Source of the DNA: Terriglobia bacterium
Lineage (GTDB): Bacteria; Acidobacteriota; Terriglobia; UBA7540
Reading direction: 5' to 3'
NCBI GenBank assembly: GCA_046704985.1
Contig: JBJKQV010000178.1
Coordinates: 1 to 35,270, forward strand
DNA: 35,270 nt
Below, one piece after another: positions 1 through 21,850 of the stretch. The notes beneath the pieces were generated by a model. It saw only the letters and a program-made list of their open reading frames with translations. It did no database searches and was not told where the DNA came from. Each line of letters begins with the position of its first letter. Position 1 is the stretch's first letter. The position numbers were made by a program, and so were the translations under genes.

Positions 1-1371
1 GTCCTGGTGGGGCTTCACCAGCCCGTGCGGGCGGCGCAGCCGGACCCGGCGGGCGGCCAGGCAAACGGGTTTGAACCCTTCGTGCCCGCCGGCCTCGCCA
101 AGGTCAAGCACGTCGTCTGGATCATCCAGGAAAATCATTCCTTCGATAATTACTTTGGCACTTTCCCGGGAGCGGACGGCATTCCGCCTTCCACCTGCCT
201 GCCCGAGATGCCGGGCAGCAAGGCCTGCGTCAAACCTTTCCACATGCCCAAGGGGATGCCTGCCCGCGACATCGGGCACACCTGGCAGCAGGCCCACGCC
301 GCTTACGATCACGGTACCATGGACGGCTTTGTGTGGGCGGAAGGCACCCACTACACAATGGGCTATTACGACCAGAAAGACATTCCCAACTACTGGGCCT
401 ACGCGCGCCATTTCACCCTCTGCGACCGCTTCTTCTCCTCGCTCAACGGCCCCAGTTTCCCCAACCACCTTTACACGGTGGCGGCGCAGTCGGGCGGCGT
501 GATCAAGAACTACTATACCGTCAAGAGCCTCGAGGACGACCTGGACGAGCCCGACGGCCTCACCTTCTCGACCATTGTGGACCGCCTGGAAGCCGCCAAG
601 GTTCCCTGGAAGTACTACGTCGAGGCCCTGCCTTGGCCGGCCAACGAACCCCACATCCCCCAGCACAACCAGTTCTTCTCCAACCCCAAGACATTTACGC
701 TTTGGAATCCCTTGCCGGCTTTCAAATCCATCGGCAAGAACTCGGTGATGATGGCGCACCTGGTGAGCGAAAAAGAGTACTACCAGGACCTCCGCCAGGG
801 CACCCTGCCGTCGGTTTGCTGGCTGATTCCTTCCTTTCAGGACAGCGAGCACCCTCCCGAGCCGGTGGCTCCCGTCGCCCAGGGCATGTGGTACGTCACT
901 CGGCTCCTGAACGCCCTCATGAAGAGCCCCGAGTGGGACAGCACGGTCGTCTTTCTTTCCTGGGACGACTACGGAGGCTTTTACGACCACGTGGCGCCGC
1001 CCGAGCTCGACGCTTACGGCTACGGCCCGCGGGTTCCAACCATCGTCATCTCGCCCTTTGCCAAGCCCGACTACATCGCGCACAAGACCTATGACTTCAC
1101 CTCCATCCTGAAGTTCATGGAGATTCGCTTTGGAGTCCGGCACCTGACCACCCGCGACCGCGCCGCCGCGGCCATGTTCGATTGCTTCGACTTCAATCAG
1201 AAGCCGACTTCGCCGCTGGTCATTCCCATCCCTCCCAATCTTCCCCCCTCGCACCTGGGCAAGCGGGGGGCTGACGATTTCGAACCATCGGTGCACCTCC
1301 CGACGCCCGAGATCGGAGCGGTTAAGAAGTATCGGAAGCACCCCGCTCCGAACGGGGGAGGGCAGCCGTAG
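1..1371 (+). CDS. Phosphoesterase-family protein (phospholipase C / AcpA acid phosphatase type); 5' end may lie outside the window
   Basis: Frame 1 is open from base 1, and the first in-window start is GTG at 7. [23 protein letters not shown] is the N-terminal signature of the phosphoesterase family. [10 protein letters not shown] and [11 protein letters not shown] fit its C-terminal conserved blocks. Confidence 0.8.
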
Positions 1372-1617
1372 TCGTTGGATGGTCGAGCGGGGTGTGGCGC
1401 GGGATGCCGGCGTTCACGGCTTTGAGGAGCCGCGTCGCCGCCTGCGCCACGGCACCCCCACAGACTCCAGCGCGCAAGGCTCCGTGGGGGGGCGCGCCGC
1501 GACGGTTATGCATGATTGAGAGTTTCTTGGTTAATTGCTATTCTATCGAACACCGGGCCCCCTCTTGAATTAGGCTCTATCGGAGGTCGCGGGATCGAAC
1601 AGAGAGGGGAGGTTGGG

Positions 1618-2409
1618 GTGAGTAGACTGGACAAGGCTCTTGCGAAACGCAAGGGCGGGGCCCTGCTGGGGCTTTCCGTTTATTCCTACGACCCTTTGTT
1701 TGTGGAGATGATTGCCCGGTTGGGATTCGATGCGCTTTGGATTGAAACCGAGCACACGACGTTGAGCTTGAGGGAGGCGGGCGACTTGTGCCGTATCGCC
1801 TCCGGCGTGGGGCTGTTGACGATGCTGCGCATCGCCGACGTGCGCCGCGAGAACGTCTTAAAGGCGGCGGAATTGGACCCGGACATCCTGGATGTTCCCA
1901 TGGTCAACGCGCCGGAAACCGCCGCGGAGCTCGTGCGTCATGCCTGTTACCCGCCCAAAGGCAACCGGGGCTTCTTCAGCGTATCGCGCGCGATGCGCTA
2001 CGGAATCGGCGGTGATATCCGCGAGGAACAACGCCGCATCAACGAGGACCTCTGCTTGATGATTCAGGTAGAAACCACCGAGGCCGTGCGGCGGGCCGAG
2101 GACCTGTGCGCTGTCCCGGGGATTGACGCGATTTTCCTGGGACCCGGAGACCTCTCGGCCAGCCTGGGTGTTACGGGTGAAACCCGGCACCCGCGAGTTG
2201 TGGAAGCCATGCAACAGACGATCCGGGTGGCCAAAGCCCGGGGAAAGCGCGTGGGTATGGCCTGCGCTCCCGGGGACGCCGCGAGCTGGGCGGCCGGCGG
2301 AGTGGATCTGTTATTCTGCGGGGGGAGTATCGCTTGCCAGCGGAGAGGCGCCCAGGAAATACTGCAAGCCAGTGCTTCCGCTCGCCTCGCGCCACCCGCC
2401 CGCGCCTGA
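1618..2409 (+). CDS. HpcH/HpaI-family 2-keto-3-deoxy-acid aldolase
   Basis: YDPLFVEMIARLGFDALWIETEHT, MLRIADV, DVPMVNAPETA, YPPKGNRGF, MIQVET and FLGPGDLS follow the HpcH/HpaI (class II pyruvate aldolase) pattern. I place the start at GTG 1618 because it is preceded by GAGGGGAGG; the track's TTG at 1516 has no RBS. The resulting 263 aa is typical for the family. Confidence 0.8.
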   Translation: MSRLDKALAKRKGGALLGLSVYSYDPLFVEMIARLGFDALWIETEHTTLSLREAGDLCRIASGVGLLTMLRIADVRRENVLKAAELDPDILDVPMVNAPETAAELVRHACYPPKGNRGFFSVSRAMRYGIGGDIREEQRRINEDLCLMIQVETTEAVRRAEDLCAVPGIDAIFLGPGDLSASLGVTGETRHPRVVEAMQQTIRVAKARGKRVGMACAPGDAASWAAGGVDLLFCGGSIACQRRGAQEILQASASARLAPPARA

Positions 2410-2518: not shown

Positions 2519-3313
2519 ATGTCGGATGCAAGAAACTCAACAAAGAAAGGCGGTGCCAAAGCGCGCAAAACTGCCGCCCGGACTGCCGCCCTCAGGCGCA
2601 CGGGCCGCAGCGTGAATCCGCGTGGGTCGCTCCGTAACTCCCATGGCCAGGATCAGCTTTCGGTTCCGAGCTCGATTGCGGTGATGTTGCGACAGAAGAT
2701 CTTGAGCGGGGAGTTGCCGGGAGGCGCCCGCATCACCGAGAGCCGCATCAGTCGCGATTTCCGCGTCGGACAGCCGAGCGTTCGCGAGGCTTTGTTTATC
2801 TTGGAACGGCAAGGGCTGGTGGAGCGCGTGGCCAACCTGGGAACCTTTGTGCGCGAACTGGACGTTCGCGACGTGAATGAGCTTTACCAGATCCGCAGGA
2901 AGTTGGAAGGCCTAGCTTTCGAGCTGGCGGCCCGGCAAGCGAGCGAAGAACAGATCGCGGCGCTGCGCGCCCTGGTCGAGAATATGAAGCAAGCGGCGCT
3001 GAAGAAAGAAAAGCGCGGGTTTTTCGAGGGCGACCTGGCTTTTCATCGCCGCGTCTGGGAATTGACGGGTAACCGGCACCTGGTGGAGGTTCTGGAACAG
3101 ATTGTGGTTCCGCTGTTTGCCTTTAGCTTCCTCCGCGTCGAGCGCGGCACTTCGGAATTGAGTGAGTCGGCGGAAGGGCACGTGGCTCTGGTGGAGGCCC
3201 TTTCCAAGGGCCCCGAGGAGGCTCGCGAAATGTCTGAGAAGTGGGTGGAGACCTTTCTGCAGAGGTACCTGTCGCGCGTGCTGAGTGGGAGCGCCTCCGC
3301 GTACCGGTTCTAG
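2519..3313 (+). CDS. GntR-family transcriptional regulator, FadR/FCD subfamily, with a basic N-terminal extension
   Basis: The winged-helix motif is ISRDFRVGQPSVREALFILERQGLVERVANLGTFV, followed by an all-helical FCD-like C-terminal domain (YQIRRKLEGLAFELAA...HRRVWELTGN). ATG 2519 is preceded by AAAGAGGAGG. The upstream part of ORF 2123..3313 overlaps the aldolase gene and is P/R/G-rich. Confidence 0.85.
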   Translation: MSDARNSTKKGGAKARKTAARTAALRRTGRSVNPRGSLRNSHGQDQLSVPSSIAVMLRQKILSGELPGGARITESRISRDFRVGQPSVREALFILERQGLVERVANLGTFVRELDVRDVNELYQIRRKLEGLAFELAARQASEEQIAALRALVENMKQAALKKEKRGFFEGDLAFHRRVWELTGNRHLVEVLEQIVVPLFAFSFLRVERGTSELSESAEGHVALVEALSKGPEEAREMSEKWVETFLQRYLSRVLSGSASAYRF

Positions 3314-3464: not shown

Positions 3465-3494
3465 TTGACAGTAAATCTATAGCTCATCTATCCT
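3465..3494 (+). promoter_or_regulatory. Candidate sigma70-type promoter with embedded AATCTATA motif upstream of the Tat-protein genes
   Basis: TTGACA at 3465-3470 and TATCCT at 3489-3494 are separated by an 18-nt spacer. The spacer contains gtAAATCTATAGctcat. The site sits in an AT-rich patch within otherwise GC-rich DNA. Confidence 0.3.
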
Positions 3495-3612: not shown

Positions 3613-5406
3613 ATGACACGCAGAGATTTCGTGACGGCGGCAGCCGCGCTGGGCTTCGCGCCCTTGGCGCGCGCCAAGTCTCCGCAGGGCGCAGTGAGCG
3701 CTCCCCTTTCCCGCACCGTTCTACCCCCTTCCGCTGGCCAGGGAGCTCTGGTGCAGGTCCATGAAGATTTCAGCCGCGACCCGGGGTGGGAAAACGTCCA
3801 CAACCGGATCGTCTGCAAGGACTGTCCGCCGGTGGCGCAGGATTTCGGCTGGGGTCCGACGTCTCACTTGGGCGGCAAGGGGGCAGAAATTGGCGGCCGC
3901 ATTTGGCAGTCTACTACGCCGGCCTACTATGGCATGCCCCTTGGGCGGCCGCTCTCGTACAACGACAGGTTTTCAGCGTCCGGGCGCATTGCCTTCATGG
4001 GTACGGAGGAAGGCCGGGGCGCGGCCTATCTGGGATTCTTCAATAACTCCCTGCACGGATGGCGGGCCTGTTCTTCTGTGGGGTTGCGCTTCATGGCTTG
4101 GTCCGGAGAAAAAGTAGGAGTTTGCCTTGACTGTGTTGACGCGCGATGGGGTAAGGACGCTGAAGAGACTGACATTTTTTTGACCGCCGACGGGTCACCA
4201 CACACGTGGAGGATCGAATACGACCCGGAAGCCAGGATGCCGGAACGGTGGTCCGACCCGCGATTGAAGAATTACTTGTCGAAAAAGCGGCAGGCATTCG
4301 ACCAGATCTATGAAAAGGCGCGGCAAGCCGAACCCGGCCTGGCGCGGGAGGCCTTGAGGCGCCGCTTGCAGACGGCGGTCGCGGAAGGCTTCCTAAGCTT
4401 TTTCCCAAGGACCCCCGGCTTCGGGATTGAGGCGTCCGTGCACGGTTACTTCTGGACCCTCAGACATAGGGAGCCCGCAAGAATGCGTGGTGCGGTCTCT
4501 TTCCAATTTGACTCGGGGCCGGTTTATAGGCTTTATCTTCGCGCCGACCACCGTGAAGCTCCACAGATCCTGAACCGTTTTGGCCTGTTCAACTTTCAGA
4601 TGTATCACCGCTGGCTGGAATTCTACGTCGCTGACTTGAAGGTGAACGGGCAAGAGATAGACCTTTCCCGGGATCCCGGGTGGGAAGGCCAAGGCAACCG
4701 CGTGCAGTTCGTCGAGCGCGATTTCCAGCGGCAGGATTTCGGATACAGCGAAACCAACTGGGCGGGCGAGCAGATTGGTGAAGTTGGCGGCCAATTCTAC
4801 CGGGCCGAGCCCGTTGATCCGGCCAACGGATATTATGCGGATGATGTCGGCATCTTGACGCTGGACGATCCTCTTAGTTTCTCAGGTAATATCTGCTTTG
4901 TGGACGCATCGACGGACTCGGGCATGTTTCTTGGTTACTTCAACGCCCGGGAGCAGGTGGCCCGCATCACCGATCCTCACGCGGGTTATCCGTTAAACGA
5001 CATGATGGGCATTGAAGTGGATGGGCCGAATCACTCTCATATCGACCCCCTGTGCTCGCCGAAGAGAGATGTGGCTTCGAAGGTGACGGGCCCGGTCTTT
5101 CTGCCTACGCGAGACCGGCACACCTTTCGGTTCGACTACGACCCTCGAGCCAACCGGGGCGTGGGGCGGATCGGGTTCCGGTTTGATCAGCAGGAATTCA
5201 CGCTGGACCTGAAACCCGAGCAGCGGGCGGCGGGGGCGCGATTTGATCACTTCGGCCTGATGAATTTACGCCGAGGCGGCAAATACGTTAGGGTGTACTT
5301 TGACGATTTAACCTATACAGCCCGCCGCCCCGGCGATTACAAAAGGGTTTTCCACCCGCAGAACATTTGGCGCGTACCTTATCCCGAGGGTGGGCGCGCA
5401 TACTAG
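3613..5406 (+). CDS. Twin-arginine-signal secreted protein of unknown family, internally duplicated (two about 280-aa modules)
   Basis: MTRRDFVTAAAALGFAPLARA is a Tat-type signal (TRRxFV). The long ORF has GC-rich third positions. Module 1 begins HEDFSRDPGWEN and module 2 begins IDLSRDPGWEG. It is a paralog of the next gene. I recognise no family. Confidence 0.8.
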   Translation: MTRRDFVTAAAALGFAPLARAKSPQGAVSAPLSRTVLPPSAGQGALVQVHEDFSRDPGWENVHNRIVCKDCPPVAQDFGWGPTSHLGGKGAEIGGRIWQSTTPAYYGMPLGRPLSYNDRFSASGRIAFMGTEEGRGAAYLGFFNNSLHGWRACSSVGLRFMAWSGEKVGVCLDCVDARWGKDAEETDIFLTADGSPHTWRIEYDPEARMPERWSDPRLKNYLSKKRQAFDQIYEKARQAEPGLAREALRRRLQTAVAEGFLSFFPRTPGFGIEASVHGYFWTLRHREPARMRGAVSFQFDSGPVYRLYLRADHREAPQILNRFGLFNFQMYHRWLEFYVADLKVNGQEIDLSRDPGWEGQGNRVQFVERDFQRQDFGYSETNWAGEQIGEVGGQFYRAEPVDPANGYYADDVGILTLDDPLSFSGNICFVDASTDSGMFLGYFNAREQVARITDPHAGYPLNDMMGIEVDGPNHSHIDPLCSPKRDVASKVTGPVFLPTRDRHTFRFDYDPRANRGVGRIGFRFDQQEFTLDLKPEQRAAGARFDHFGLMNLRRGGKYVRVYFDDLTYTARRPGDYKRVFHPQNIWRVPYPEGGRAY

Positions 5407-5566
5407 CGTCCGGAATTCCGATCGCGCGGAGCGGGAGAGGGGTCCGCTTGTCGGCGGGGCACTGAAGACCAAGCAGATTCCTCGGGTCGGTTATGTGCCT
5501 CGGTCCTCGGAATAACCGAAGCGGAGGTTCTTTCAGCGAGCCGCGAAGGGAGGGGGGCTACGATTC

Positions 5567-7345
5567 ATGCGGTTGACCCGAAGGAAATTCGTCACCAGTA
5601 CGGTCGCGCTGGGGGTAGCGCCTCTCTCGAAGCTTGCGATGGCCTTCGGTTCGGGAGTGAATCAAAGGCCTTCCCCGGGCACTTCCGTCCAGCCGGAACA
5701 GACGGGTCTCGTCCAGGTTCATGAAGATTTCAGCCGGGACCCGGGTTGGGACAACATCCACAACCGGATTGTCTGCAAGGACTGCCCGACGGTGGTGCAG
5801 GATTTCGGCTGGAGACCGACGGCGCACGTGGGAGGTAGGCCGGGTGAGATTGGCGGCCGGGTGTGGCAATCGCGAACGCCGGCGTTTTATGGTTTGCCTC
5901 TCGGACGCCCCCTCTCCTTCAACGACCGGTTTTCCGCCTCGGGGCGCATCGCCTTCATGAGGACAGAAGGCCTGGGGGCGGCCTACCTGGGCTTCTTTAA
6001 CAACGCCCTGCAGGGGTGGCGTCCCTGGTCTTCGGTGGCTTTTCGTTTGGTGGCGGAAGCGGGGAACAAAGTCCGGGCCGACATCGACTACATGACGGCC
6101 AAGTGGGGAGCCTTTGGCGACGAGACCGATATCCTGATATCTGCCGACGGTTCACCCCATACGTGGAAGATGTCCTACGATCCCGAGGGCAGGATGGCCG
6201 CCCGCTGGCCTGATCCCAGGCTGCGAAACTACCTGAGCACCCGGCGCCAAACCGCAACGCAAATCTACGAGCGGGCGCGCCAAGCCGAGCCCGGCCTAAC
6301 GCGTGAGGAGTTGATGGAGCGCCTGCGCGCCGCTCTGGCCGAGGACCTGCTGCGATTTTTTCCCCGGCCGCGCGGCGATTTCTGGACCCTCAACGAGCAT
6401 AAGCATGAGCCGACGAAGGGGACGATCAATTTCCAGTTTGACTCCGGCCTGGAACACAGTTTTCACGTCCTGGCTGAGCATCGCCAGTCCCCCCTCATCC
6501 TCAATCGCTTTGGGATTTTCAACTATCAGATCTACCACCGCTGGTTGGAGTTCTACGTCGCTGACCTGACGGTGAACGGGCAGGCCCTCGACCTGTCGAG
6601 CGACCCGGGCTGGGAAGGCCACGGCAACCGTGTGCAGTTCGTCGAGCGGGATTTCCAGCGGCAGAATTTCGGATACAGCGAAACCAACTGGGCGGGGAAG
6701 CAGATCGGAGAAATCGGAGGGGAGTTCTACAGGGTCGAGGCCGTAGACCCCTACAACGGTTACTATGCCGACGAGATCGGCGCCTTGACGCTGGATGACC
6801 CTATCGAGTTCTCCGGCCAGGTCTGCTTCGTAAGCGGCGGAACCGATGCCGGCATGTTTCTCGGGTACTTCAATGCCCGGGAGAAGATGGCTCCCATCAC
6901 CGACCGCTTGGGGGGCGATCCTCTCGACGACACTCTGGGCGTCGAGATCGCGGGACCCACGCGCATCGGGTACTACTTCAGTGCGGTGTGTTCTCCCAAG
7001 AGGCGTGTCGCCTCCCACCGGCACGGCCCGGTGTTTCTCCCCACCGCCGACCGTCACGCATTTCGCTTCACTTACGACCCCAAGGACAACGGCGGCGTGG
7101 GAAGAATCCGCGTGTGGCTGGATGAGGAAGAATTCACACTGGACTTGAAACCCGAGCAGCGGGCGGCGGGCGCGCGATTCGATCACTTCGGCCTGATGAA
7201 CTTACGCCGGGGAGGCAAGTACGTGACCGTGTACTTCGATGACCTGACTTACACCGCCCGCCGTGCCAGCAACTACCGACGCATCCGTCATCCCCAGAAG
7301 ATTTGGGAGGTCCCCTATCCTCAAGGGGGACGCACCTATGAATGA
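5567..7345 (+). CDS. Twin-arginine-signal secreted protein, paralog of 3613..5406 with the same two-module architecture
   Basis: ATG 5567 is preceded by GAAGGGAGGGGGG. The Tat-type signal is MRLTRRKFVTSTVALGVAPL. The protein is collinear with the upstream gene, including identical blocks such as LVQVHEDFSRDPGW and EFTLDLKPEQRAAGARFDHFGLMNLRRGGKYV. Confidence 0.85.
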   Translation: MRLTRRKFVTSTVALGVAPLSKLAMAFGSGVNQRPSPGTSVQPEQTGLVQVHEDFSRDPGWDNIHNRIVCKDCPTVVQDFGWRPTAHVGGRPGEIGGRVWQSRTPAFYGLPLGRPLSFNDRFSASGRIAFMRTEGLGAAYLGFFNNALQGWRPWSSVAFRLVAEAGNKVRADIDYMTAKWGAFGDETDILISADGSPHTWKMSYDPEGRMAARWPDPRLRNYLSTRRQTATQIYERARQAEPGLTREELMERLRAALAEDLLRFFPRPRGDFWTLNEHKHEPTKGTINFQFDSGLEHSFHVLAEHRQSPLILNRFGIFNYQIYHRWLEFYVADLTVNGQALDLSSDPGWEGHGNRVQFVERDFQRQNFGYSETNWAGKQIGEIGGEFYRVEAVDPYNGYYADEIGALTLDDPIEFSGQVCFVSGGTDAGMFLGYFNAREKMAPITDRLGGDPLDDTLGVEIAGPTRIGYYFSAVCSPKRRVASHRHGPVFLPTADRHAFRFTYDPKDNGGVGRIRVWLDEEEFTLDLKPEQRAAGARFDHFGLMNLRRGGKYVTVYFDDLTYTARRASNYRRIRHPQKIWEVPYPQGGRTYE

Positions 7346-7409
7346 ACTGCCGGTCTGCTCCATGTGGGCAGGCTGCGTGCAATCCCCGGCTTAAGGAGGG
7401 AAACAACTC

Positions 7410-9026
7410 ATGATGACACGAAGACAGTTCGTCGGCGCAGCCGCCGCTATGGGGCTGGCACCTCTGCCCAAGGCCTGGCCCTCTGCCGGGCCTGCCAAAG
7501 ACGCCTCCACTCCCGTGCCTTTCGACGGCAATCAAAGGGTCGAACATTACGTCCTGCTCGGCAACCGCATGGTCTTCACCAACTGGTACTTTGTGCGGCC
7601 CGGGAACGTGGACTGGGTGGACGCGAGCGGCAAGAGCGTCTACGCCAGTAAAGAGGCGATGGGGCCGTGGGCGGCGCGCTTTGCGGGCAAGGATTTTCCT
7701 CACGGAGTGCGGATTGTCGCCCAGCCCGCGCAGCGCCAGGGGCCGATCATTCATCCCGAGCGCCCCTGGGAGAAGTCGGGAATCGTCTTTGGCACGGTCA
7801 TTCACGAAGGCGGCACTTACCGGGCGTGGGGGAACTGCTATGCGGGGGTGGAAGGCGTTTCGGCGTATTTTGAGTCGCGCGACGGACTGAACTGGACGCG
7901 GCCGAACCTGGGGCTGCAAGAGCACAACGGAAGCCGCGCCAACAACCTGCTCCACACCCCGCCGGGCGGCGGAGTCTGGATCGACCCGCACGCGGCGCCG
8001 GGAGAGAAATACAAAACGGCCGGCTCCCACCGCTACACCAAGGCGCAATACGAAACGTGGCTCAAAAGCCATCCCGGTCAAGTCGATCCGATGGTGCAGG
8101 ACAACCACGACCTCAGCGCCTACCACGGCATCTCCGGCTCGACCTCCGCGGACGGGTTGCACTGGAAACGGTTGCCGGAGCCCCTGGTTTTTCAGTATAG
8201 CGACACGCAGATTGTGGGCTATTACGACCTGCGGCGGCGGCAGTATGTACTCTACACTCGCGCTTACATGGGCGCCGGGCCGTCGCACCGGCGCGCCGTC
8301 GGCCGCACCCAGAGCGAGGAGTTCGGCAACTTCCCGATCTCCGACCTCATCCTGGAGACCGCACCGTCCATGGGACCGTGCGATACGCTCTACACCAACT
8401 GCCGCACCACCATCCCCGGCGCTCCTGACCATCACCTGATGTTCCCGGCCGTCTACGAGCTCCAGGTCGACAGTACCCAGATCGCCTTCGCCTCCAGCCA
8501 CGACGGGGTGATCTGGTCCTTTGTGCCCGGGTCGCCCATCGCCTCGCCCGGCACCTTTGGCGAGTGGGACGGCGGCAACATGTTCGCATTTTCCAACCTG
8601 CTGGAGCTTGCCGACGGCAGTTTTGTTCTTCCTTTTACCGGCTTCATCTTCCCGCACAAGTATCCGCGCGGGGAGTGGGAGATGGGGAGCGGCTACCTGA
8701 CCTGGCCGAAGGGCCGGCTGGTGGCGATTGAAGCACCCGACGTGGGCGAGTTTTCGACGGTGGGGTTTCTGCCTCCCGGGCGCAAGGTGCTCATCAACGC
8801 CCTCACCCCGCGGGCGGGAGAGATTCGCGTCGAGGTGGCCACCGACCCGGAAGGGAAGACGGTCGCCGGGCGCTCGTTTGAGGAGTGCAAGCCGCTGATC
8901 GGAGATTGCTACAAGACGCCGATTACGTGGAACGGGCAGGAGGATCTGGGCTCCAGGGAAGGAACGCCCGTAATCCTGCGCTTCCGGCTGGACCACGCGC
9001 AGATCTTCGGCCTGGAGTTCGTCTGA
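7410..9026 (+). CDS. Twin-arginine-signal secreted beta-propeller-like protein (putative glycoside hydrolase, family unassigned) with C-terminal beta-sandwich-like domain
   Basis: ATG 7410 is preceded by AAGGAGGG. The signal is MMTRRQFVGAAAAMGLAPL. Three Asp-box-like SxDGxxW motifs are present (ESRDGLNWTRP, TSADGLHWKRLP, SSHDGVIWSF). The C-terminus is ...PVILRFRLDHAQIFGLEFV. Confidence 0.8.
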   Translation: MMTRRQFVGAAAAMGLAPLPKAWPSAGPAKDASTPVPFDGNQRVEHYVLLGNRMVFTNWYFVRPGNVDWVDASGKSVYASKEAMGPWAARFAGKDFPHGVRIVAQPAQRQGPIIHPERPWEKSGIVFGTVIHEGGTYRAWGNCYAGVEGVSAYFESRDGLNWTRPNLGLQEHNGSRANNLLHTPPGGGVWIDPHAAPGEKYKTAGSHRYTKAQYETWLKSHPGQVDPMVQDNHDLSAYHGISGSTSADGLHWKRLPEPLVFQYSDTQIVGYYDLRRRQYVLYTRAYMGAGPSHRRAVGRTQSEEFGNFPISDLILETAPSMGPCDTLYTNCRTTIPGAPDHHLMFPAVYELQVDSTQIAFASSHDGVIWSFVPGSPIASPGTFGEWDGGNMFAFSNLLELADGSFVLPFTGFIFPHKYPRGEWEMGSGYLTWPKGRLVAIEAPDVGEFSTVGFLPPGRKVLINALTPRAGEIRVEVATDPEGKTVAGRSFEECKPLIGDCYKTPITWNGQEDLGSREGTPVILRFRLDHAQIFGLEFV

Positions 9027-9052: not shown

Positions 9053-10216
9053 TCAGGCAATACGCCGGCCGAATTTTTTCAAGGCGACCGGGTCAATTTC
9101 GAAACCGAAGCCGGGCCGCTCGGAAAGATAGACTACCCCCGCGCGGATTTCAGGGCGGCCGAGATACAAGCGGTCCCAGAAGGGATCGCGCTCACGGTTG
9201 GGGAAAGCCTCAACAATGTAGCCGTTGCTCGCCGCCGCGACCAGGTGGGCATGGATTTGAGGATCGTGGTGCGGAGCCATCAGCACTCCGTTGGCGGCCG
9301 CGCAGGCGGTGATTTTCAGCCACTCGGTAATGCCTCCTGCGCGCGTGCTGTCGAATTGCATGAGGCGAATGCCGCCGTGGTCAATCAGGTCCCGGCAGCC
9401 CCAGCGGTGAATCTCGCTTTCGCCGCTGGCGATGGGGATATGGGTGGAGAGGGCCACTTGTTTGAGGCCGGAGCCGGCGTCGTACCAGCGCACGGGTTCT
9501 TCCAGCCAGTCGATTCCAAAGGGGGCAAACGCCTTGGCCGCGGCAATGGCGGCGGGCACGTCGTAGGCTTGGTTGGCGTCCAGGAAGAGGCAAATGTCCG
9601 GGCCCACCGCTTCCCGGACCGCCTGCACCCTGCGCACGTCCTCGCGCAGCGGGAGCCCGCCGATCTTCATCTTGACGGCCTTGTATCCTGCCCCCACATA
9701 CCCCCGCATCTCCGCCACCAGTTTCTCCACGGCCGCTTCACCGCGCGGCCCGTAGTAGCCCCCGCTGGCATAGGCTTTGGCCTTGCCTTCCTGGCCCCCC
9801 AGCAGGCGGAATACCGGCAGACCCAGGCTCTTGCCTTTGATATCCCAAAGAGCGATGTCGATGCCGGCGATGGCCGCCAAGGTTTGCGCGGGCGGGATGG
9901 TGCTGAGTTGAGGCTGCTGCTTCTTTCCGCGCGGAGCCAGGGGAGGCCGCGTGCAGGTGGTCAGAAACAGGTCTTCGTATATCGTTTCGGTGGCCAGAGG
10001 GTCACGCCCCAGGAGCAGGGGGGCGAAAACCTCACGGATGATCGCCGCGATGGCCTTCAGGGGGCGGCCGTGGATTTCACCGATTCCCGAAATGCCTTCG
10101 TCCGTTTCAATGCGCACCAGGATCTCGGAAGCGTCTTGGATCGGTTCCAGCGACATCCAGAAAGCCCGCTTGAGCTGGACGCGAAGCAGATGGAGCTTGA
10201 TGGCGGTAATCTTCAT
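9053..10216 (-). CDS. Enolase-superfamily enzyme, mandelate racemase subgroup (putative acid-sugar dehydratase)
   Basis: The N-terminal capping domain is GISGIGEIHG. A KxK motif lies in YKAVKMKIGG. Metal-ligand contexts are FLDANQAY, IDWLEEPV and IASGESE. Asp and His candidates lie in MQFDSTRAGG and LMAPHH. ATG 10216 (MKITAIK) has GAGGTG upstream. Confidence 0.85.
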   Translation of the reverse strand: MKITAIKLHLLRVQLKRAFWMSLEPIQDASEILVRIETDEGISGIGEIHGRPLKAIAAIIREVFAPLLLGRDPLATETIYEDLFLTTCTRPPLAPRGKKQQPQLSTIPPAQTLAAIAGIDIALWDIKGKSLGLPVFRLLGGQEGKAKAYASGGYYGPRGEAAVEKLVAEMRGYVGAGYKAVKMKIGGLPLREDVRRVQAVREAVGPDICLFLDANQAYDVPAAIAAAKAFAPFGIDWLEEPVRWYDAGSGLKQVALSTHIPIASGESEIHRWGCRDLIDHGGIRLMQFDSTRAGGITEWLKITACAAANGVLMAPHHDPQIHAHLVAAASNGYIVEAFPNRERDPFWDRLYLGRPEIRAGVVYLSERPGFGFEIDPVALKKFGRRIA

Positions 10217-10493
10217 AGCGCGGGACACCTCGAGTTTGTGGCCGTCCGGCTTGCGCGCGTCACTCTGCTGACGGAGCCCGGTTTACTCAAACCATCATAA
10301 GGCAAGACACAGTGAAACTGAAGGCGTCCCCCGGCGGGGGGACGGTGGCGGCTGAAGGGCCGTCGCGGCACCGCAAGCGCCTTTATAGATTACCAATTTA
10401 ATGGTACGCTATTCAACTCGTTTTACTCGCCGGGAGGCACTTGGCCCCCCGGGGGCAGTGACCCCCGGCGAGGACCTGGAAGGGAGGCGGGGC

Positions 10494-12155
10494 ATGAAAG
10501 GCGAAGGGATCGGGCGGCGGGGCTTTCTCAAGGCGGCCGCGGGAGCGGCGGCGGCATCCGTGGTGACGCCACCGGGATCGGCGAAGGCGGCGGAACCTCT
10601 CCCCCAGCAGGAATATGGCGAGCCGTATTCACTGGCCGGCAAGCGCCTAGTCTTCCTGAACTGGCACTACATCCGCCCCGGCACTTTTGGCTGGTACGAC
10701 TCCTCGGGGTGGAAGGTGGGGCTCACCGATGCCGTCCCCCCAGGGGAAGCCCATCTGCGCCGCAAGGACAGTCCGCGCGGAATTCGCCTGGTGGCACAAC
10801 CCGCTCAGCGCCTGGGGCCGCTGTTTGAGGCTTCCCAACCGTGGGAGGAGGGTGCGGGCGTGGCGCTCACCACGGTCGTCCAGGACGGCGGCGTGTATCG
10901 CGCCTGGGGCGCACCGTTTACCACTGCCGGCAATCCTCCCGGGCAGAAGTACTTCACCTACTACGAGTCATCCGACGGCCTGACCTGGAAGCGGCCGAGC
11001 CTGGGCATCGTGGATTTCCAGGGAAGCAAGAACAACAACATCGTGAACATCTTCGGCACCGACGGGGGCACGGTCTTTGTCGACCCTTCCGCTCCCCCTG
11101 CCGAGCGCTACAAGATGATCGCCGAAATGAAATTCAGCGCCCGGGTTTGCAACGCTTACCGGCGCCGCCGCCCGCACGATTGGGGCCCGCTCGTTAAGTC
11201 CCACGCCGACGGCTCGGCCAAGGGGTTGACCGGGGCGGCCTCGGCCGATGGGATGCACTGGAAGCAGTTCCCGGATCCGATGGTGATCGAGTACACCGAC
11301 ACGCAGATCACCGCCTACTACGACCAGCAACTCGGCAAGTACGTCGCCTATACGCGCAGCTACCCCGTCGGCCTGCGCGCTCCGGACGCCCACCTGGATG
11401 GAAAGCAGACCTGGCGCGTCACCCGGCGCTCCATCGGCCGCGCGGAAAGCGACAGCTTCCGGGAGTTTCCCCTCCAGAAGACCATGCTCGAACCCGGACT
11501 GCGCCTCTCACCTTCGCAAGTCCTGTATACCAATTGCAAGACCACCATCCCCGGTGCGCCCGACCATCACCTGCTGTTTCCCGCCGTCTGGGACATGGCC
11601 GTGGACACCACGAGCATTCACGTGGCCAGCAGCCACGACGGGAGGCTGTGGCACTTCCTCGAGGGGTCGCCGGTCTTCGAGCCCGGCCCCTTTGGCGCCT
11701 TCGACGGAGGGGTGATCTTTGCCCATCCCAACCTGGTCGAGCTGGCGGACGGGCGCTTTGTGCTTCCTTACACCGGCTACGACGTGCCTCACAAATACCC
11801 GCGCAAGCTCTGGAAGTACGCCCCCGGCTACGCCGTGTGGCCCAAAGGGCGGCTGGTGGCTTTGCAGGCGGATTACGGCGAATTCGCCACGGTGGCTATC
11901 ATGCCCCCGGGCCGTCACCTGCGCATCAACGCCCTCACCGACCGGGGAGGGAGCATCCGCGTGGAGGTGGCGGGATTCGACCATCAGCCGCTGCCACACC
12001 GCTCGTTCCAGGACTCGACGCCTGTCTTTGGCGATTTGCACTGGAGCCCGCTGAGTTGGAACGGTGAAGAGGACCTGGGCAACGCCGAGGGCTCGCCGGT
12101 GATGCTGCGCTTCCGGCTCGACCACGCGCGGATCTTCGGCTTGGAGTTTGCTTGA
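10494..12155 (+). CDS. Twin-arginine-signal secreted beta-propeller-like protein, paralog of 7410..9026
   Basis: ATG 10494 is preceded by GGAAGGGAGG. The signal is MKGEGIGRRGFLKAAAGAAAA. It is collinear with 7410..9026 (RLVAQPAQRLGP, YESSDGLTWKRP, ASADGMHWKQFP, TNCKTTIPGAPDHHLLFPAVW, SSHDGRLWHF, LRFRLDHARIFGLEFA). Confidence 0.8.
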   Translation: MKGEGIGRRGFLKAAAGAAAASVVTPPGSAKAAEPLPQQEYGEPYSLAGKRLVFLNWHYIRPGTFGWYDSSGWKVGLTDAVPPGEAHLRRKDSPRGIRLVAQPAQRLGPLFEASQPWEEGAGVALTTVVQDGGVYRAWGAPFTTAGNPPGQKYFTYYESSDGLTWKRPSLGIVDFQGSKNNNIVNIFGTDGGTVFVDPSAPPAERYKMIAEMKFSARVCNAYRRRRPHDWGPLVKSHADGSAKGLTGAASADGMHWKQFPDPMVIEYTDTQITAYYDQQLGKYVAYTRSYPVGLRAPDAHLDGKQTWRVTRRSIGRAESDSFREFPLQKTMLEPGLRLSPSQVLYTNCKTTIPGAPDHHLLFPAVWDMAVDTTSIHVASSHDGRLWHFLEGSPVFEPGPFGAFDGGVIFAHPNLVELADGRFVLPYTGYDVPHKYPRKLWKYAPGYAVWPKGRLVALQADYGEFATVAIMPPGRHLRINALTDRGGSIRVEVAGFDHQPLPHRSFQDSTPVFGDLHWSPLSWNGEEDLGNAEGSPVMLRFRLDHARIFGLEFA

Positions 12156-12229
12156 CCCCTTGGCGCAGCATGACGGGGAAAGGCCGCGAGTGCTCAGGCG
12201 CGGCTTCAGGGAAATGGAGGCAGTGGAAA

Positions 12230-13480
12230 ATGAGGATTCGCCAAGCGCCTGAGCGCCCACGGCATCGACGGCGGGGCGTGGTCCTGCTCGCCCTGGCGGC
12301 GATCGCGGGGGGCTTGGCCGTGTGGGGCGCCGGTCTGCCCGCTCCGTCATCTTCATTGCCGCAGATGCTCAAAATTGTCTGGCAGAAGGGGCCCGACCTG
12401 CCGCAGGGATTTCAAGACAGCAGCGGCGGCATCGTCGATCACTTTCTGGTGACGGTGGCGGGTTTCTGCACGGGCCAGACCCAAGGCGTGGTCAATAAAC
12501 TTGGCAAATATCCCCGCGGGTTCCTCAAGAAGTCCTGGGCGCTCAATCTTCAGGCGCCGCAAAGCGGCTGGCAGCGCTTGCCGGATTTTCCCGGGGCGGC
12601 CCGGCAAGCGCTTACCTGCGCTGCTGTGGACAACCATATTTATTGCTGGGGCGGCTTCAGTGACTTCTCTCCCTATTGCTACCGCGACGGTTACGAGTTG
12701 TCCCGGACGGACGGCCAATGGAAATGGCAGAGCTTGCCGGAACTCCCTTGGAGGTACGCTGGGGCCGGGATGTGCGCAGTGGGGCCGAAGATCTACTGGC
12801 TGGGCGGAGTGGACCGCGCCGAGACCCACACGAAGTTCTACACCAACTCCGGCCCCGCGGGCCGTGTCTCCCGCCGGGGCGCGCGTCTGCTGGTTTTTGA
12901 TACCCGCGAGCCCCAGCGGGGATGGCAGGAATTGCCGAGCTGCCCCGGAACACCCCGCTGGGTGCCCGCGATGGCGGCGGTGAAGGGAGAGATCTATGTC
13001 CTCGGCGGGGCCACGGGGAGGGACAACCCCACCGGCCACTACTGCACGGTGGTGGATAACTGGAAGTTTGACCCCGCCCGCAAGGCCTGGACACGCCTGC
13101 CCGACTCTCCCGTTTCCAGCGGGAATTTTCCCACCGGCGCCATTGTTTATCAGCACCGTTTCATCCTGCTGATTGGGGGCGGCCAATACCCTCACGTCAT
13201 GGGCCCCTCGGGAACCCTGAGCAAGCCCTACGGGAAGACCTTCAAGCATTACCTCCATAATCCTTACAACAGCAACGTGTGGGTGTTTGATACCCGCACC
13301 AACGCCTTCGGCACGGCAACTCCCCTGCCGCTTAACAACAATTTGCCTATGGCGGTCCTGGAAGGAAACCAGCTCAACTTGCTTGGGGGCGAGACGGGCG
13401 GGGCGGTCGTCGACGGCGAGTACTTTGGCCACCATCCCGACCTTTACCTGGTTGGGGAGATCTCCCGTGTCCGTCACTAG
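12230..13480 (+). CDS. Kelch-repeat beta-propeller protein (NanM/YjhT mutarotase-like), N-terminal twin-arginine signal or anchor
   Basis: ATG 12230 is preceded by GGAGG. The N-terminus is RHRRRGVVLLALAAIAGGLAV. Blade motifs repeat: IYCWGGF, IYWLGGV, IYVLGGA, ILLIGGG, LNLLGGETGG. W-x-x-LP motifs are also present (WQRLPDFP, WQSLPELP, WQELPSCP, WTRLPDSP). Confidence 0.75.
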   Translation: MRIRQAPERPRHRRRGVVLLALAAIAGGLAVWGAGLPAPSSSLPQMLKIVWQKGPDLPQGFQDSSGGIVDHFLVTVAGFCTGQTQGVVNKLGKYPRGFLKKSWALNLQAPQSGWQRLPDFPGAARQALTCAAVDNHIYCWGGFSDFSPYCYRDGYELSRTDGQWKWQSLPELPWRYAGAGMCAVGPKIYWLGGVDRAETHTKFYTNSGPAGRVSRRGARLLVFDTREPQRGWQELPSCPGTPRWVPAMAAVKGEIYVLGGATGRDNPTGHYCTVVDNWKFDPARKAWTRLPDSPVSSGNFPTGAIVYQHRFILLIGGGQYPHVMGPSGTLSKPYGKTFKHYLHNPYNSNVWVFDTRTNAFGTATPLPLNNNLPMAVLEGNQLNLLGGETGGAVVDGEYFGHHPDLYLVGEISRVRH

Positions 13481-13813: not shown

Positions 13814-15037
13814 TCATGCCCGGCGCGCGGCGGGCATGAAGAAGCGCGCCAAGATGCCTCCCAGGAGCATGCCCGCGCCCAGCAACGCAAAAGCGTAGAT
13901 GAAATTGCCGGTGCGCTGCTTGAAGTATCCTACCAGCAGCGGCCCGAAGTAGCCGCCCAGGTTGCCCAGAGCGTTGACCAGCCCCATGGCCGTGCCGGCG
14001 GCGCGGCGGGGCAGGGTTTCGGTGGGAATGGCCCAGAAGGGTCCCATGGCGCCGTACGACCCGGCGCCCACCAGGGCCACCAGGGCAAAGGAGAGCAGCG
14101 GCGCGCGGGTACTCAGTGCCACGCCGCCCAGCAGCAGGATTCCAGCCCATGCCAGCCCCGCCGCCACGTGCCGGCTGCGCTCGCGCTCGCGGTCGGAGTG
14201 GCGTGAGAGAATTTCCATCCCCAGCGCCGTCAAAGCAAAGGGCAGCGTGAAGAGCAGGCCAACCGAGAATTCACTCAGTTTCTTGTGGCTTTCCAGCGCC
14301 GTGGGCAGCCAGAACAGGTAGCCGTAGTTTCCCGTGTTGAGCAGGAAGTAGACCACCACCATCACCAGCACGTGCGGGCGCAGAAGCGTGCGCAGATAAG
14401 GTTCCGGAGCCGCCGGCTCGGTCTCGCTGGCCTCCCGCTCCAGGGTGGTTTCCAGGTACGTGCGCTCTTCCGGCGAGATCCAGGAAGCCTGGCGGGGATG
14501 GTCGTTGATGAAGAACGCCCATACGCCCAGCCACAGGATCGGCCACAAGCCTTCGAAGATGAGCAGCACTCTCCAGTCCCAGTGGCCCAGAATCCATCCC
14601 GACAGGGGGGAGGAGATCACCACCGCCACGGGAAGGCAGAGCATCCAGTAAGCGTTGGCGCGGGCGCGCTCGGTGCGCGGGAACCAGTGCGCCAGCAGCA
14701 CCAGGGTGGCCGGCCAGACACCGCCCTCCGCGATGCCCAGCATCAGGCGCATGGTCCAGAATTCCCGCCCCCTATGCACCAGGCCGGTCAGCACTGCGCA
14801 GGCGCCCCACAGCGCCAGCAGGATGGCGACAAAGCGCTTGGCGCTCCAGCGGCTGGCCAGATACCCGCCGGGAATTTGCAGCACCAGGTAGCCCCAGAAA
14901 AACACCCCCGCGGCGCTCCCCGCCTGCTGCGCGTCCATGTGCAATTCACGGCTGATCTGGGGCAGGGCGAGGGAGATGTTGGTGCGGTCAACGAAGGCGA
15001 TGGTATACATGATGAAGGCTACAGGAATTATGCGCAT
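13814..15037 (-). CDS. MFS transporter, anion:cation symporter (ACS) type, like hexuronate/galactonate/rhamnonate transporters
   Basis: The sequence is hydrophobic and multi-span. The N-terminus IIPVAFIMYTIAFVDRTNISLALP plus GYLASRWSAKR is typical of ACS-family MFS. The start is uncertain: I use ATG 15037; GTG 15055 is an alternative; the track's TTG 15184 has no RBS. Confidence 0.8.
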   Translation of the reverse strand: MRIIPVAFIMYTIAFVDRTNISLALPQISRELHMDAQQAGSAAGVFFWGYLVLQIPGGYLASRWSAKRFVAILLALWGACAVLTGLVHRGREFWTMRLMLGIAEGGVWPATLVLLAHWFPRTERARANAYWMLCLPVAVVISSPLSGWILGHWDWRVLLIFEGLWPILWLGVWAFFINDHPRQASWISPEERTYLETTLEREASETEPAAPEPYLRTLLRPHVLVMVVVYFLLNTGNYGYLFWLPTALESHKKLSEFSVGLLFTLPFALTALGMEILSRHSDRERERSRHVAAGLAWAGILLLGGVALSTRAPLLSFALVALVGAGSYGAMGPFWAIPTETLPRRAAGTAMGLVNALGNLGGYFGPLLVGYFKQRTGNFIYAFALLGAGMLLGGILARFFMPAARRA

Positions 15038-15660
15038 CCATCGCTGGTTGGGCACGGCTCCACGTCCTGGCACGGCGCGCGGAGAGCGGTGCCAGGCTGT
15101 CGAAGTAAGGCGCCGTCCACGCGGGCGGGAAATGACTCGAGTACGAAGAATAGTATCAACGGGATCATTGAACCCGTCAAGCAAACACCACCAGGAGAGT
15201 GATTGTAGTGTTCCAATCTTATATAAATCTATATCCGATGGCGTGCCGGCGCGGGATCGATTGTAGGCTTGTGGTACCTGTTCGTTTTATGTCAAGCCGA
15301 CACCGGGAGATCGAGCGCAGGTTGTCAATTGCCAAGGATGCCTGCGGCAACAACTCTTCTTTGAAGACCGAAGCGACGGCGAGCAACCTAGCAATCTTCT
15401 GTCTTTACCTGAATGCCCTTGATGCAGGTTTCAGGTCGACTCGGTCAATTCTCGATTTGTGGTGGGGAAACGTTGGAGGGATCCAGTCCATTGACTGTGG
15501 GGACTCTTGTGGGGACCCCAAATGCATTTGCACCTCTGTTGGTGCAACTCAAAACAACTCCCTCCAAGTCGGCAGCTCGTTGACCTACAAGGCGTTGCAG
15601 GGTTTTCTGCCTTCGGTTCAAGGAGTTGTGAATCTGGCTCAATTACGGCTCTTCATCAGC

Positions 15661-21100: not shown

Positions 21101-21850
21101 CGGAGGCGTGGGCAGGGCCTGGCCGATGGCGCCGTAGACCGAAGTGGCGGATTGAAGCACTCCTCCTGCGCCGAAGTTCTCGCCGGTGTTCAGCACGAAG
21201 CGGTTCTCGCCCACCTGCGAGGTGGAGTTGCCGTTGAACTGGTTGTTGGTGCTGATGCCGTTCAGCGAAAAGCTGTTGCTGGTGTCGCGGTTGCCGTCGG
21301 CGAAGATGGCCTGATTCCCGAGGCCCGCGTTGGCGCCCGCGCCGCCCAGAAAATCCGCGTGTACGCCCGGGCTCATAATCGCCAGTTGGGTGAAACTCCC
21401 CGTGCCGAGGGGCGTCGATTGGATGGTGGCCTTCGAGACCACGTAACCGGTGGTGGCGTTGGTCTGGTTCATGAGCGGCGTAGCGTTTACGGTGATGCTG
21501 GTCGTGGCTTCACCGGGCGCCAGCTTGGCGTTCACGGTGGCGGTTCGGTTACTATCGACTTCGATGGCGGAATAGGTCTCCGCCTTGAACCCCGCCTTGG
21601 TGATGGTGACGCTGTAGGTCCCCGGAGGCACGCCGAAAAAGGCGTACGAGCCCCGTTGATTAGTCGTCGCCGTCATCTGCAAATTGGTATCCGAGTTGGT
21701 GGCTTTCACCTGCGCTCCCGGCACGACCGCGCCCGAGACGTCCTGCACCACGCCGGTGATGGACCCCTGGGTTTGTTGGCCGCGCACCTGGACGGCGCAC
21801 GCGAAGCTAAGAATCAACAGCGCGAGGAATAACTTGCTCCTCCGACACAT
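18152..21850 (-). CDS. TonB-dependent receptor with N-terminal carboxypeptidase-regulatory-like domain
   Basis: ATG 21850 is preceded by GGAGGG. The signal is MCRRSKLFLALLILSFACAVQVRG. The CarboxypepD_reg-like segment is GSITGVVQDVSGAVVPGAQVKATN...GTYSVTITKAGFK. A beta-barrel-type sequence of more than 1000 aa follows, rich in G/N/S/T/Y and ending in an aromatic residue (...SLHFLF). Confidence 0.9.
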   Translation of the reverse strand: MCRRSKLFLALLILSFACAVQVRGQQTQGSITGVVQDVSGAVVPGAQVKATNSDTNLQMTATTNQRGSYAFFGVPPGTYSVTITKAGFKAETYSAIEVDSNRTATVNAKLAPGEATTSITVNATPLMNQTNATTGYVVSKATIQSTPLGTGSFTQLAIMSPGVHADFLGGAGANAGLGNQAIFADGNRDTSNSFSLNGISTNNQFNGNSTSQVGENRFVLNTGENFGAGGVLQSATSVYGAIGQALPTPPPDAIQEITVNSSMYDASQGNKSGAHIGVTTKSGTNRVHGSAWEQWQNSSMNAAPFFYNADNLKNPFMNRNQFGATIGGPIIKNKLFYFGSYQGVRISDASLSTKNVTVPLGLTDDRSAAGIISMIQNSDYGKTITAADISPVAMKLFNAKLPDGQYLIPSAQITNSTTATQLGYDAVLRGPNTISSVNQGIASLDYQASDRDRLSGKYYIQNNPTTGPFGAVSDLIGFPQELSAGSQVLSISNNLILSPTMTWEQRIGFTRLRAYSQTSQAFGPSDMGMNLLGSTGFPQIEISGMDPTIYNTLEFGPSTSFANAGMYQNRGEIESSLNMVKGRHTISIGGLWDHTQLNVINKNTNTDILEFHSLLDFVEGYVYTGNAFAGSANRYYRSNTAGLYINDDFKVRSNLTITAGLRWDYDGPLSEKYGRLTGFDPALYSYNSTTDTITNAGLVIAGNNSTSGTQGASASLMTQHQWGLAPRIGIAWSPTSKVTVRAGYGVYYDRGELFSYFSAPAGSGFNGPFGVTLAPPFVEPIYASRGSDFAAPFGTASVPPPSGNAASYLALLPNVSQTASGHWPTGNHSGPLLFSGYNIHNKLPYTESWTLDLQFQPSNNWMFEIGYVGNHGVHEVLPIPFNEPLIATPSNPVHGQMYSYGGVSPNSPCNTYYSGLSPLDNEPLCPPPYYAGNAEVRVPYIGYDMNSVTYNAEGISNYDALQLQVHKRMSHGLQFSASYTWSHALDMQSGLGLFVTGNNPQDPKSNYASSDFDQTHVFLVNYSYNLPGFSGSRFAKDATKGWTISGQTVAQSGQPYSPYDYHGSVASLYYGTYDELANPIVPLKSGVTASQAQLQGTHGVNAGQPVLNAQAFAPQFVAPGTNGVPPCDASGCDLYESLFGTTGRNMFRGPFQVRFDMSLAKQFNITERYRLRFEADAFNLFNQANFDTPNNNVNFFPDYYGPPANPPRGSLGYIQHTIGSPRFMQLSLHFLF

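Follow-up and report, generated by a model that had tools for sequence, protein, structure and literature searches.

The DNA analysed here is a stretch of 35,270 nucleotides from a Terriglobia bacterium (Acidobacteriota; GenBank assembly GCA_046704985.1, contig JBJKQV010000178.1), referred to below as the window. Two adjacent genes in it, designated A and B, encode exported proteins, each of which is predicted to be a rigid unit of two β-sandwich domains of the concanavalin A (ConA)/LamG-like type, within the ConA-like superfamily. They belong to a family that is real, large and still unnamed, whose fold class is well known and whose tandem architecture is unusual. The reading that we prefer, at a probability of roughly 45%, is that A and B are enzymes active on carbohydrates in the periplasm (hydrolases or lyases with a jelly-roll catalytic scaffold), which would act in partnership with a β-propeller protein of the type encoded by the nearby genes C and D.

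Predicted structure and fold comparisons

The AlphaFold2 model of A, made from a 48-sequence alignment, has a predicted local distance difference test score (pLDDT) of 89.7 and a predicted template modelling score (pTM) of 0.85. It consists of two all-β modules, both β-sandwiches, with a short linker between them. Comparison with the Protein Data Bank (PDB) using Foldseek gave 71 matches at E ≤ 1e-3; of the 50 that were listed, every one includes a ConA-like domain. A first-pass annotation, made from the sequence alone, had guessed a jelly roll of the ConA/LamG-like kind. The model and the Foldseek matches agree with this guess, for a structure that is predicted rather than solved. Identities are no higher than 14% and every template modelling (TM) score is 0.49 or less, and on this comparison no solved structure appears to be closely related to A and B.

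The best matches are tandem LG/LNS domains, namely laminin α1 LG4-5 (2jd4) and neurexin-1α L2-L3 (6cw1), at E ~1e-8 and a probability of 1.0. They resemble A in having two consecutive ConA-like sandwiches, and in a last strand that ends in an acidic motif of the hhDDLxY type. However, the identity is 10-11%, the TM-scores are 0.19-0.34, and there is no match to a LamG Pfam model. Known LG domains are eukaryotic, Ca2+-dependent adhesion modules, whereas A and B are bacterial and periplasmic, and have motifs of their own (DPGWE, QDFGW, GEIGG, GWRP). At the level of a single module there is a likeness to L-type lectins (the calreticulin lectin domain, legume lectins and Emp47p; target-normalized TM-scores 0.40-0.49, E 1e-5 to 1e-3), whose fold is a carbohydrate-binding jelly roll. 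Here the identity is 9-14%, and A and B do not match PF00139, PF03388 or PF00262.

Alginate lyases of polysaccharide lyase family 7 (PL7; 7w13, 8jsd, 5y33) were matched at E ~2e-4 with TM-scores of 0.35-0.45. PL7 and glycoside hydrolase family 16 (GH16) enzymes have a jelly-roll scaffold able to hold an active-site cleft, and the acidic-sugar catabolic context of A and B resembles lyase loci, but PL7 enzymes are single-domain, unlike the double-module A and B. A regular-expression search of A and B for the PL7 blocks RxExR, QIH and YFKxG found only QVH at residues 48-50, in the first strand, where the His is not conserved. The GH16 motif, E-[ILV]-D-[ILV]-(x)-E, is absent from both proteins by the same kind of search, and there is no Pfam match. 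Since the signature motifs are missing, membership of PL7 or GH16 was rejected.

The DUF1080/3-keto-disaccharide hydrolase family (PF06439) is an abundant exported ConA-like family in Planctomycetota, Verrucomicrobiota and Acidobacteriota, which are also home to the A family, and one homologue of A is found 2 kb from a PF06439 gene and a GFO_IDH_MocA oxidoreductase. It differs in being a single domain of ~200 aa; PF06439 is matched by 0 of 48 members of the A family, and there is no DUF1080 structure among the top 50 Foldseek matches. Enzymes of the GH32/GH43 type combine a five-bladed propeller with a β-sandwich, and the A and C pair jointly provides a propeller and ConA-like sandwiches. The difference is that A and C are separate polypeptides, that C has its own sandwich, and that neither has a significant Pfam match.

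Internal duplication and conserved residues

The N-terminal half of A matches the C-terminal half in BLASTP at E=5e-13, with 29% identity over 169 aa. Profiles of module 1 (residues 45-346) and module 2 (residues 347-597) were built from 48 family members and compared using hhalign, which gave a probability of 100% and E=3e-41 over 211 aligned columns. The alignment spans the whole module except for an insert of ~80 residues in module 1. Because the match covers nearly the entire module, the profiles indicate that each protein arose by an ancient internal duplication, common to the family. An internal duplication had been proposed in the first-pass annotation and is borne out by both comparisons, although the modules are not of ~280 aa each as described there: the first has ~300 aa, and the second ~225 aa followed by a 25-aa tail.

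Relatives of ~480 aa have both modules, without the insert in module 1 and without the C-terminal tail. In this set a single motif skeleton is common to both modules, comprising FDxDPxWxGxxNR, QDFG[FYW]S, GE[IL]GG, YYA, SASG, GxFN, HxWxxxYDP, [DN]RFG[IL] and YFDD[LI]. The GWRP loop is conserved in module 1 alone, and an invariant Asp (D435) in module 2 alone, where the other invariant residues are E390, E399, R538, R553, D564 and D565.

Module 1 of both proteins contains a CKDC sequence, exactly where it had been reported (Table 1). It had also been taken as a conserved hallmark, and this does not hold: in the family alignment 21 of 48 members have C68 (the others Ala or Gly) and 25 have C71 (the others Pro or Gly), so that only about half have the cysteines. 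Looked at as a sign of a thiol-disulfide oxidoreductase or of metal binding, the CxxC is not kept across the 48 members. Judging from the alignment, the pair would be a local staple at most, and not a functional hallmark.

A and B are themselves paralogues, lying in tandem on the same strand, and both open reading frames (ORFs) were found as first annotated. The estimate that about three quarters of their residues are identical was too high: BLASTP gives 65% identity over 601 columns, and it is the similarity (positives) that reaches 76%. Except for the A orthologues P0002 (79%) and P0004 (82%), which come from other samples, the nearest relatives of A and B are each other, and this mutual closeness points to a lineage-specific tandem duplication as the origin of the pair.

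Family size and distribution

Sequence searches of Pfam, NCBIfam and the PDB (the last with phmmer and with profiles) gave no match for A or B. In Pfam there was none at E ≤ 0.01 for A and B and none at E ≤ 1 for the 48 aligned members, including the LamG models PF00054, PF02210 and PF13385, while 20 distant relatives have no Pfam match beyond their appended domains. No glycoside hydrolase (GH), polysaccharide lyase (PL), carbohydrate esterase (CE) or carbohydrate-binding module (CBM) family of CAZy was matched via Pfam, NCBIfam or PDB sequences, or via PDB folds closer than TM 0.49. The impression that these proteins belong to no recognizable family is borne out at the level of sequence, and it extends to 46 further aligned relatives. 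Searches of the literature found nothing on this double jelly-roll family or its operon.

The family is nevertheless large. A word-indexed search found at least 374 relatives, every one of them named 'hypothetical', and an exhaustive profile search found 1767 representatives (clusters at 50% identity) at E ≤ 1e-3, with 305 at E ≤ 1e-30. Its range is at least 10 phyla, and identity of 40-55% is kept across more than 10. Matches in genomes come from Acidobacteriota (the closest being a Solibacteraceae metagenome-assembled genome, 54%), Planctomycetota, Verrucomicrobiota, Calditrichota, Ignavibacteriota, Bacteroidota, KSB1, Marinimicrobia, Lentisphaeria, Poribacteria and others. The cultured planctomycete Fontivita pretiosa B-254 has at least six paralogues.

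Distant members are fused to PL10 pectate lyase, β-helix, dockerin, fn3, Ig-like repeats, PEP-CTERM, WD40 or an extracytoplasmic function (ECF) sigma factor. P0135, P0144, P0147, P0138 and P0155 have the double module, or module 2 alone, fused to PL10, a right-handed β-helix, a dockerin or an ECF sigma C-terminus.

The propeller partner and gene neighbourhoods

Genes C and D follow A and B in the window, and had been described as 'propeller-like'. The model of C (pLDDT 87.8) makes this more precise, as a five-bladed β-propeller with a C-terminal β-sandwich. It matches structures from GH130, GH43, GH32, GH62 and GH137, and the GalNAc deacetylase from F. plautii, at 8-15% identity, while C and D have no significant Pfam match and no NCBIfam or PDB sequence match. 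Their family has at least 699 relatives, of which 38% have a motif like that for twin-arginine translocation (Tat), and Arg, Asp and Glu are invariant at many of its positions. Independently of A and B, this is probably a new family of glycosidase-like proteins.

Synteny was counted over 38 non-redundant A-family loci, with a C-type gene scored when within 10 kb. A C-type propeller gene is present in 21 of the 38, as an immediate neighbour in 17-19, and 19 of the 38 have a pyruvate aldolase, either DHDPS or HpcH. The suggestion that A and B head a gene string running into the C and D family thus has a counterpart in other genomes. The subfamily of A that has the insert and tail (the '580-aa' subfamily) is the one that pairs with the C-type propeller.

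In about 14 loci the order is conserved, and reads IclR/TetR regulator, Ig/propeller protein of the type IX secretion system (T9SS), TonB-dependent receptor, DHDPS, C, A, (C), PhoD-like phosphatase and FG-GAP, with one to four FG-GAP/ASPIC proteins at the end. The hosts are Calditrichota, Ignavibacteriota, Bacteroidota, Lentisphaeria, Marinimicrobia, KSB1 and Chlorobiota (the loci include L014, L015, L016, L019, L022, L023, L024, L028, L029, L032, L036, L039 and L045). Over 12 syntenic operons the mean pairwise identity is highest for A, at 64%, followed by C (62%), PhoD (59%), DHDPS (53%), the TonB receptor (51%) and the surface T9SS protein (41%).

Loci of the PVC/Acidobacteria type, that of the window among them, are built differently. 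Beside A and C they have GntR/FCD regulators, HpcH, MR/MLE dehydratase, aldehyde and 2-hydroxyacid dehydrogenases, SDR and Amidohydro_2 enzymes, with MFS or SSF transporters, and genes related to glycans, namely sulfatases, GH140 apiosidase, rhamnose mutarotase or BNR proteins. One of them (L044) echoes the gene set of the window, with GntR/FCD heading the locus, along with C, a transporter, HpcH, MR/MLE and A; the locus of P0026 has SDR, Amidohydro_2, MR/MLE and DHDPS. In F. pretiosa (CP191258.1, about 5.194-5.216 Mb; L001 10001-20317) four A-family paralogues stand in a row, broken by a C-like propeller protein of 1000 aa; on the flanks are genes for FG-GAP proteins, a GlcNAc 2-epimerase, an HpcH aldolase and an SSF transporter. 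No ATP-binding cassette (ABC) or TRAP transporter was seen in the neighbourhoods of the loci examined.

Taken together, the neighbouring genes suggest that the substrate is an acidic, sulfated or phosphorylated heteroglycan with a pentose or 6-deoxy-hexose. More specific substrates were also considered, of which none is repeated in enough loci to stand out. These were sialic or ulosonic acids (from the NanM-like Kelch protein, GntR/FCD, BNR and the GlcNAc 2-epimerase of Fontivita), rhamnogalacturonan-II (GH140 and rhaM), substrates of oxidative pathways for pentoses or 6-deoxyhexoses (SDR, Amidohydro_2, MR/MLE, DHDPS/HpcH and Aldedh), and phosphodiester-containing polymers (PhoD-like and PLC-like proteins).

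Function

In the scheme that we favour, oligosaccharides would be imported via a TonB-type outer-membrane channel, and A/B and the propeller C/D would act on them in series in the periplasm. The freed sugar or sugar acid would enter the cytoplasm by an MFS or SSF transporter, and be degraded by a non-phosphorylative route consisting of an acid-sugar dehydratase and then an HpcH- or DHDPS-type pyruvate aldolase, to which an SDR, a lactonase and an aldehyde dehydrogenase may be added in some loci. Three points in this scheme are inferred, namely the glycan nature of the substrate, the catalytic (and not binding) role of A and B, and the order of the steps.

The argument for catalysis comes from conservation and from location. 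That A is the most conserved gene in the 12 syntenic operons is a pattern expected of an enzyme, unlike fast-evolving surface glycan-binding proteins. Furthermore, A is soluble, periplasmic and unanchored, and the examined loci show no ABC or TRAP transporter for which a binding protein would be required, which favours a catalytic role. The soluble components that TonB-dependent glycan loci place in the periplasm are usually enzymes. The finding of dockerin-tagged relatives with two modules was also counted in favour of catalysis.

Several observations weigh against an enzyme. Lectin-like structures (LG domains, calreticulin, legume lectins and Emp47p) outrank enzymes (PL7) in the Foldseek results; a search with regular expressions showed A and B to lack the catalytic motif of GH16/PL7 jelly-roll enzymes; the motif skeleton shared by both modules could reflect two equivalent binding sites just as well as a structural core; one or two modules occur as appendages (to PL10, β-helix, fn3, Ig-like and ECF sigma domains), which is how binding modules behave; and some close homologues are orphans among housekeeping genes. 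Most of this is what would be expected of the main rival, in which A and B are non-catalytic, lectin- or CBM-like proteins with two binding sites, which capture substrate and present it to C/D, or retain oligosaccharides in the periplasm. The closest folds are those of lectins and LG domains, no known catalytic signature is present, and appended modules are found in dockerin and PEP-CTERM contexts as well. We regard this role as possible but doubtful, in view of the conservation of A well above that of the transporter and the surface protein, the 40-55% identity held over more than 10 phyla, and the absence of both a lipid anchor and an ABC or TRAP partner.

The orphan contexts also bear on a quite different explanation, that A and B have nothing to do with carbohydrates and are, for example, an eqolisin/G1-like jelly-roll peptidase, a sensor domain or a structural protein of the envelope. 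The ConA-like fold is also found in G1 peptidases, M20 peptidase genes are close to some of the loci, and one module is fused to an ECF sigma factor. Set against these, the family is overwhelmingly associated with GH-like propellers, sulfatases, GH140 and genes of sugar-acid catabolism, and Pfam, the PDB and Foldseek gave no peptidase match. We consider this explanation very unlikely.

Signal peptides and export

In the public protein collection the gene call for A (P0001, 551 aa) begins at V47, a GTG at 3751, and has thereby lost the signal peptide; automated annotation would consequently describe the product as cytoplasmic. We prefer the ATG at 3613 because the whole N-terminus is conserved in P0002, because AGGAGG is found 15 nt upstream, and because in the relatives a signal peptide immediately precedes the conserved LVQVHxDF.

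With this start, A begins TRRDFV-TAAAALGFAPLARAK and B begins TRRKFV-TSTVALGVAPLSKLAMA, both of which fit the S/T-R-R-x-F-L-K consensus, as had been recognized for both proteins in the first-pass annotation. The twin-arginine (RR) motif is followed by an Ala/Gly-rich h-region and a basic residue in the c-region. Alignment to A places the signal of B at about residues 1-25, and residues 1-36 of the A model have pLDDT <50. A has no lipobox, and from reading of the sequence and a motif search its signal is cleavable. The Tat hidden Markov model (HMM) PF10518 matches A at E=0.24 (11.9 bits, against a cut-off of 22.7), with E=0.072 for the best family member, and TIGR01409 does not match A or B at E ≤ 1. 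Short HMMs for Tat signals often overlook true signals.

Tat export had been taken to imply folding before export, possibly with a cofactor. This does not stand up to comparison with the relatives, most of which have Sec-type signals. Among 118 full-length relatives a convincing RR motif is found only in A, B and the A orthologue P0002, while 106 of 114 relatives have a plain hydrophobic Sec-type signal directly before the conserved LVQVHQDF start. Within the window, RR motifs are found on all the exported proteins of the locus, namely A, B, C, D and probably the Kelch protein. Tat use is therefore seen as a habit of the organism, and gives no argument for a cofactor; from these N-termini, Tat export of A and B appears to be a lineage habit and not a family trait. 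A cofactor or redox role based on Tat together with CxxC was rejected, neither being kept across the family.

The signal peptides of A (MTRRDFVTAAAALGFAPL, 3613-3684) and C (MTRRQFVGAAAAMGLAPL, 7413-7484) are almost alike at the protein level, and the likeness is repeated in the orthologues P0002 and P0268, even though Sec export is the rule elsewhere in the A family. Recent gene conversion finds no support as its cause, as the DNA of the four signals (A, B, C and D) has only 69% mean column identity. Tat is able to export pre-assembled complexes, and similar signals on A and C would suit a hetero-oligomeric enzyme in which A and B are obligate non-catalytic subunits, supplying a sandwich to C/D in trans, with the insert and tail as the interface. 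GH32 and GH43 enzymes, which carry a β-sandwich in cis, provide an analogy. The direct adjacency of the two genes in 17-19 loci, the matched conservation of A and C (64% vs 62%) and the restriction of insert and tail to the C-pairing subfamily also fit such a complex. However, C already has a C-terminal β-sandwich, some A genes occur without C, and the export routes differ, most lineages having Sec signals on A against Tat-type signals on 38% of the C family, so that assembly before export cannot be general. On balance an obligate complex is improbable.

Features of the locus and possible co-regulation

Positions of the features are collected in Table 1. The sequence AATCTATA, of eight nucleotides, occurs exactly three times in the 35 kb, against 0.12 expected by chance, and each copy is in a promoter region: at 3474-3481 (+), upstream of A; at 10384-10391 (-), in the divergent intergenic region between the MR/MLE gene and D; and at 15226-15233 (+), 42 bp upstream of the MFS gene. 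The three copies are candidates for a shared operator, to which the GntR/FCD protein, itself a candidate regulator of the locus, perhaps binds. No terminator was found between A, B and C. The shared AATCTATA promoters, the promoter-like site before A and the lack of a terminator suggest that the locus forms one regulon, possibly under the adjacent GntR/FCD regulator.

The ORF of the Kelch protein has RRR and a hydrophobic stretch about 40 residues in, from which its true start is probably internal and the protein exported. The 1236-aa outer-membrane protein may be the import channel. The phosphoesterase (PF04185) at the left edge of the locus parallels the PhoD-like phosphatase of the operons in FCB bacteria. 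A 620-aa ORF runs antisense to C (7134-8996, -), and similar long antisense ORFs occur elsewhere in the window; they have no family matches and overlap genes that are strongly supported by homologues, and are therefore read as artefacts of the 63% G+C content.

Table 1. Positions in the window of genes A to D, their parts and the surrounding features.
Feature	Position	Strand	Remarks
PLC/acid-phosphatase-family phosphoesterase (PF04185)	7-1371		Left edge of locus
HpcH/HpaI-family class II pyruvate aldolase	1516-2409	+	Start codon uncertain
GntR/FCD-family regulator	2528-3313	+	Directly upstream of A
Promoter-like site TTGACA-18-TATCCT	3465-3494	+	In AT-rich patch upstream of A; overlaps AATCTATA
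Gene A	3613-5406	+	597 aa plus stop, MTRRDFV...; exported tandem ConA/LamG-like protein (predicted)
A, twin-arginine signal peptide (MTRRDFVTAAAALGFAPLARA / KSP)	3613-3675	+	From sequence reading; putative cleavage site
A, module 1 (residues 45-346)	3745-4650	+	β-sandwich (model); conserved FFNxxRQGWRPWSS loop; CKDC at 3814-3825
A, insert in module 1 (about residues 209-290)	4237-4482	+	Three helices (216-257) and a β hairpin (model); subfamily-specific
A, module 2 (residues 347-572)	4651-5328	+	Second β-sandwich (model)
A, C-terminal tail (residues 573-597)	5329-5403	+	...VPYPxGGRxY; conserved, A-subfamily-specific, high confidence in model
Gene B	5567-7345	+	592 aa, MRLTRRKFV...; paralogue of A with the same architecture
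B, module 1	5705-6580	+	By alignment to A; CKDC at 5774-5785
B, module 2	6581-7258	+	By alignment to A
B, tail	7259-7342	+	By alignment to A
Gene C	7410-9026	+	538 aa, Tat motif MMTRRQFV; five-bladed β-propeller and C-terminal β-sandwich (model)
Acid-sugar dehydratase, enolase (MR/MLE) superfamily	9053-10228	-	
Gene D	10494-12155	+	553 aa, Tat-like GRRGFL; paralogue of C (48% identity)
Kelch-repeat protein resembling YjhT/NanM mutarotases	12152-13480	+	Sub-threshold matches; start codon uncertain
MFS transporter, anion:cation symporter type	13814-15184	-	Best match D-galactonate transporter subfamily, below cut-off
CarboxypepD_reg + OMP_b-brl_4 outer-membrane protein	18152-21862	-	1236 aa; 11 kb downstream

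Significance

Glycan degraders among the Acidobacteriota, PVC and FCB bacteria of soil, sediment and marine habitats have many exported proteins labelled 'hypothetical', and new CAZyme families are still emerging from among them. The A family stands out in having 1767 clusters, no relative in Pfam, NCBIfam or the PDB, and the top conservation in an operon that crosses phyla. It is tied to a second unnamed family of glycosidase-like propeller fold, making a concrete target pair for enzyme discovery, and F. pretiosa B-254 provides a cultured host in which to study it. The Tat signal and the CxxC pair, which seemed to be clues to mechanism, turn out to be lineage-specific.

As exported ConA-like carbohydrate-active proteins of glycan-utilization loci, A and B are of a known kind; the family itself is unnamed and the two-family gene pair conserved, and no new principle is involved. 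The most far-reaching proposal, which we put forward very tentatively and think rather unlikely, is that A/B and C/D are two new families of glycoside-cleaving enzymes, forming together a previously unrecognized two-enzyme module that degrades a widespread acidic, phosphorylated or sulfated glycan. If true, this module would have been kept from Acidobacteriota and Planctomycetota to Calditrichota and Bacteroidota, the glycan would be catabolized through the non-phosphorylative dehydratase/pyruvate-aldolase route, and CAZy would gain a family of tandem-LamG catalytic architecture, with A as its first member.

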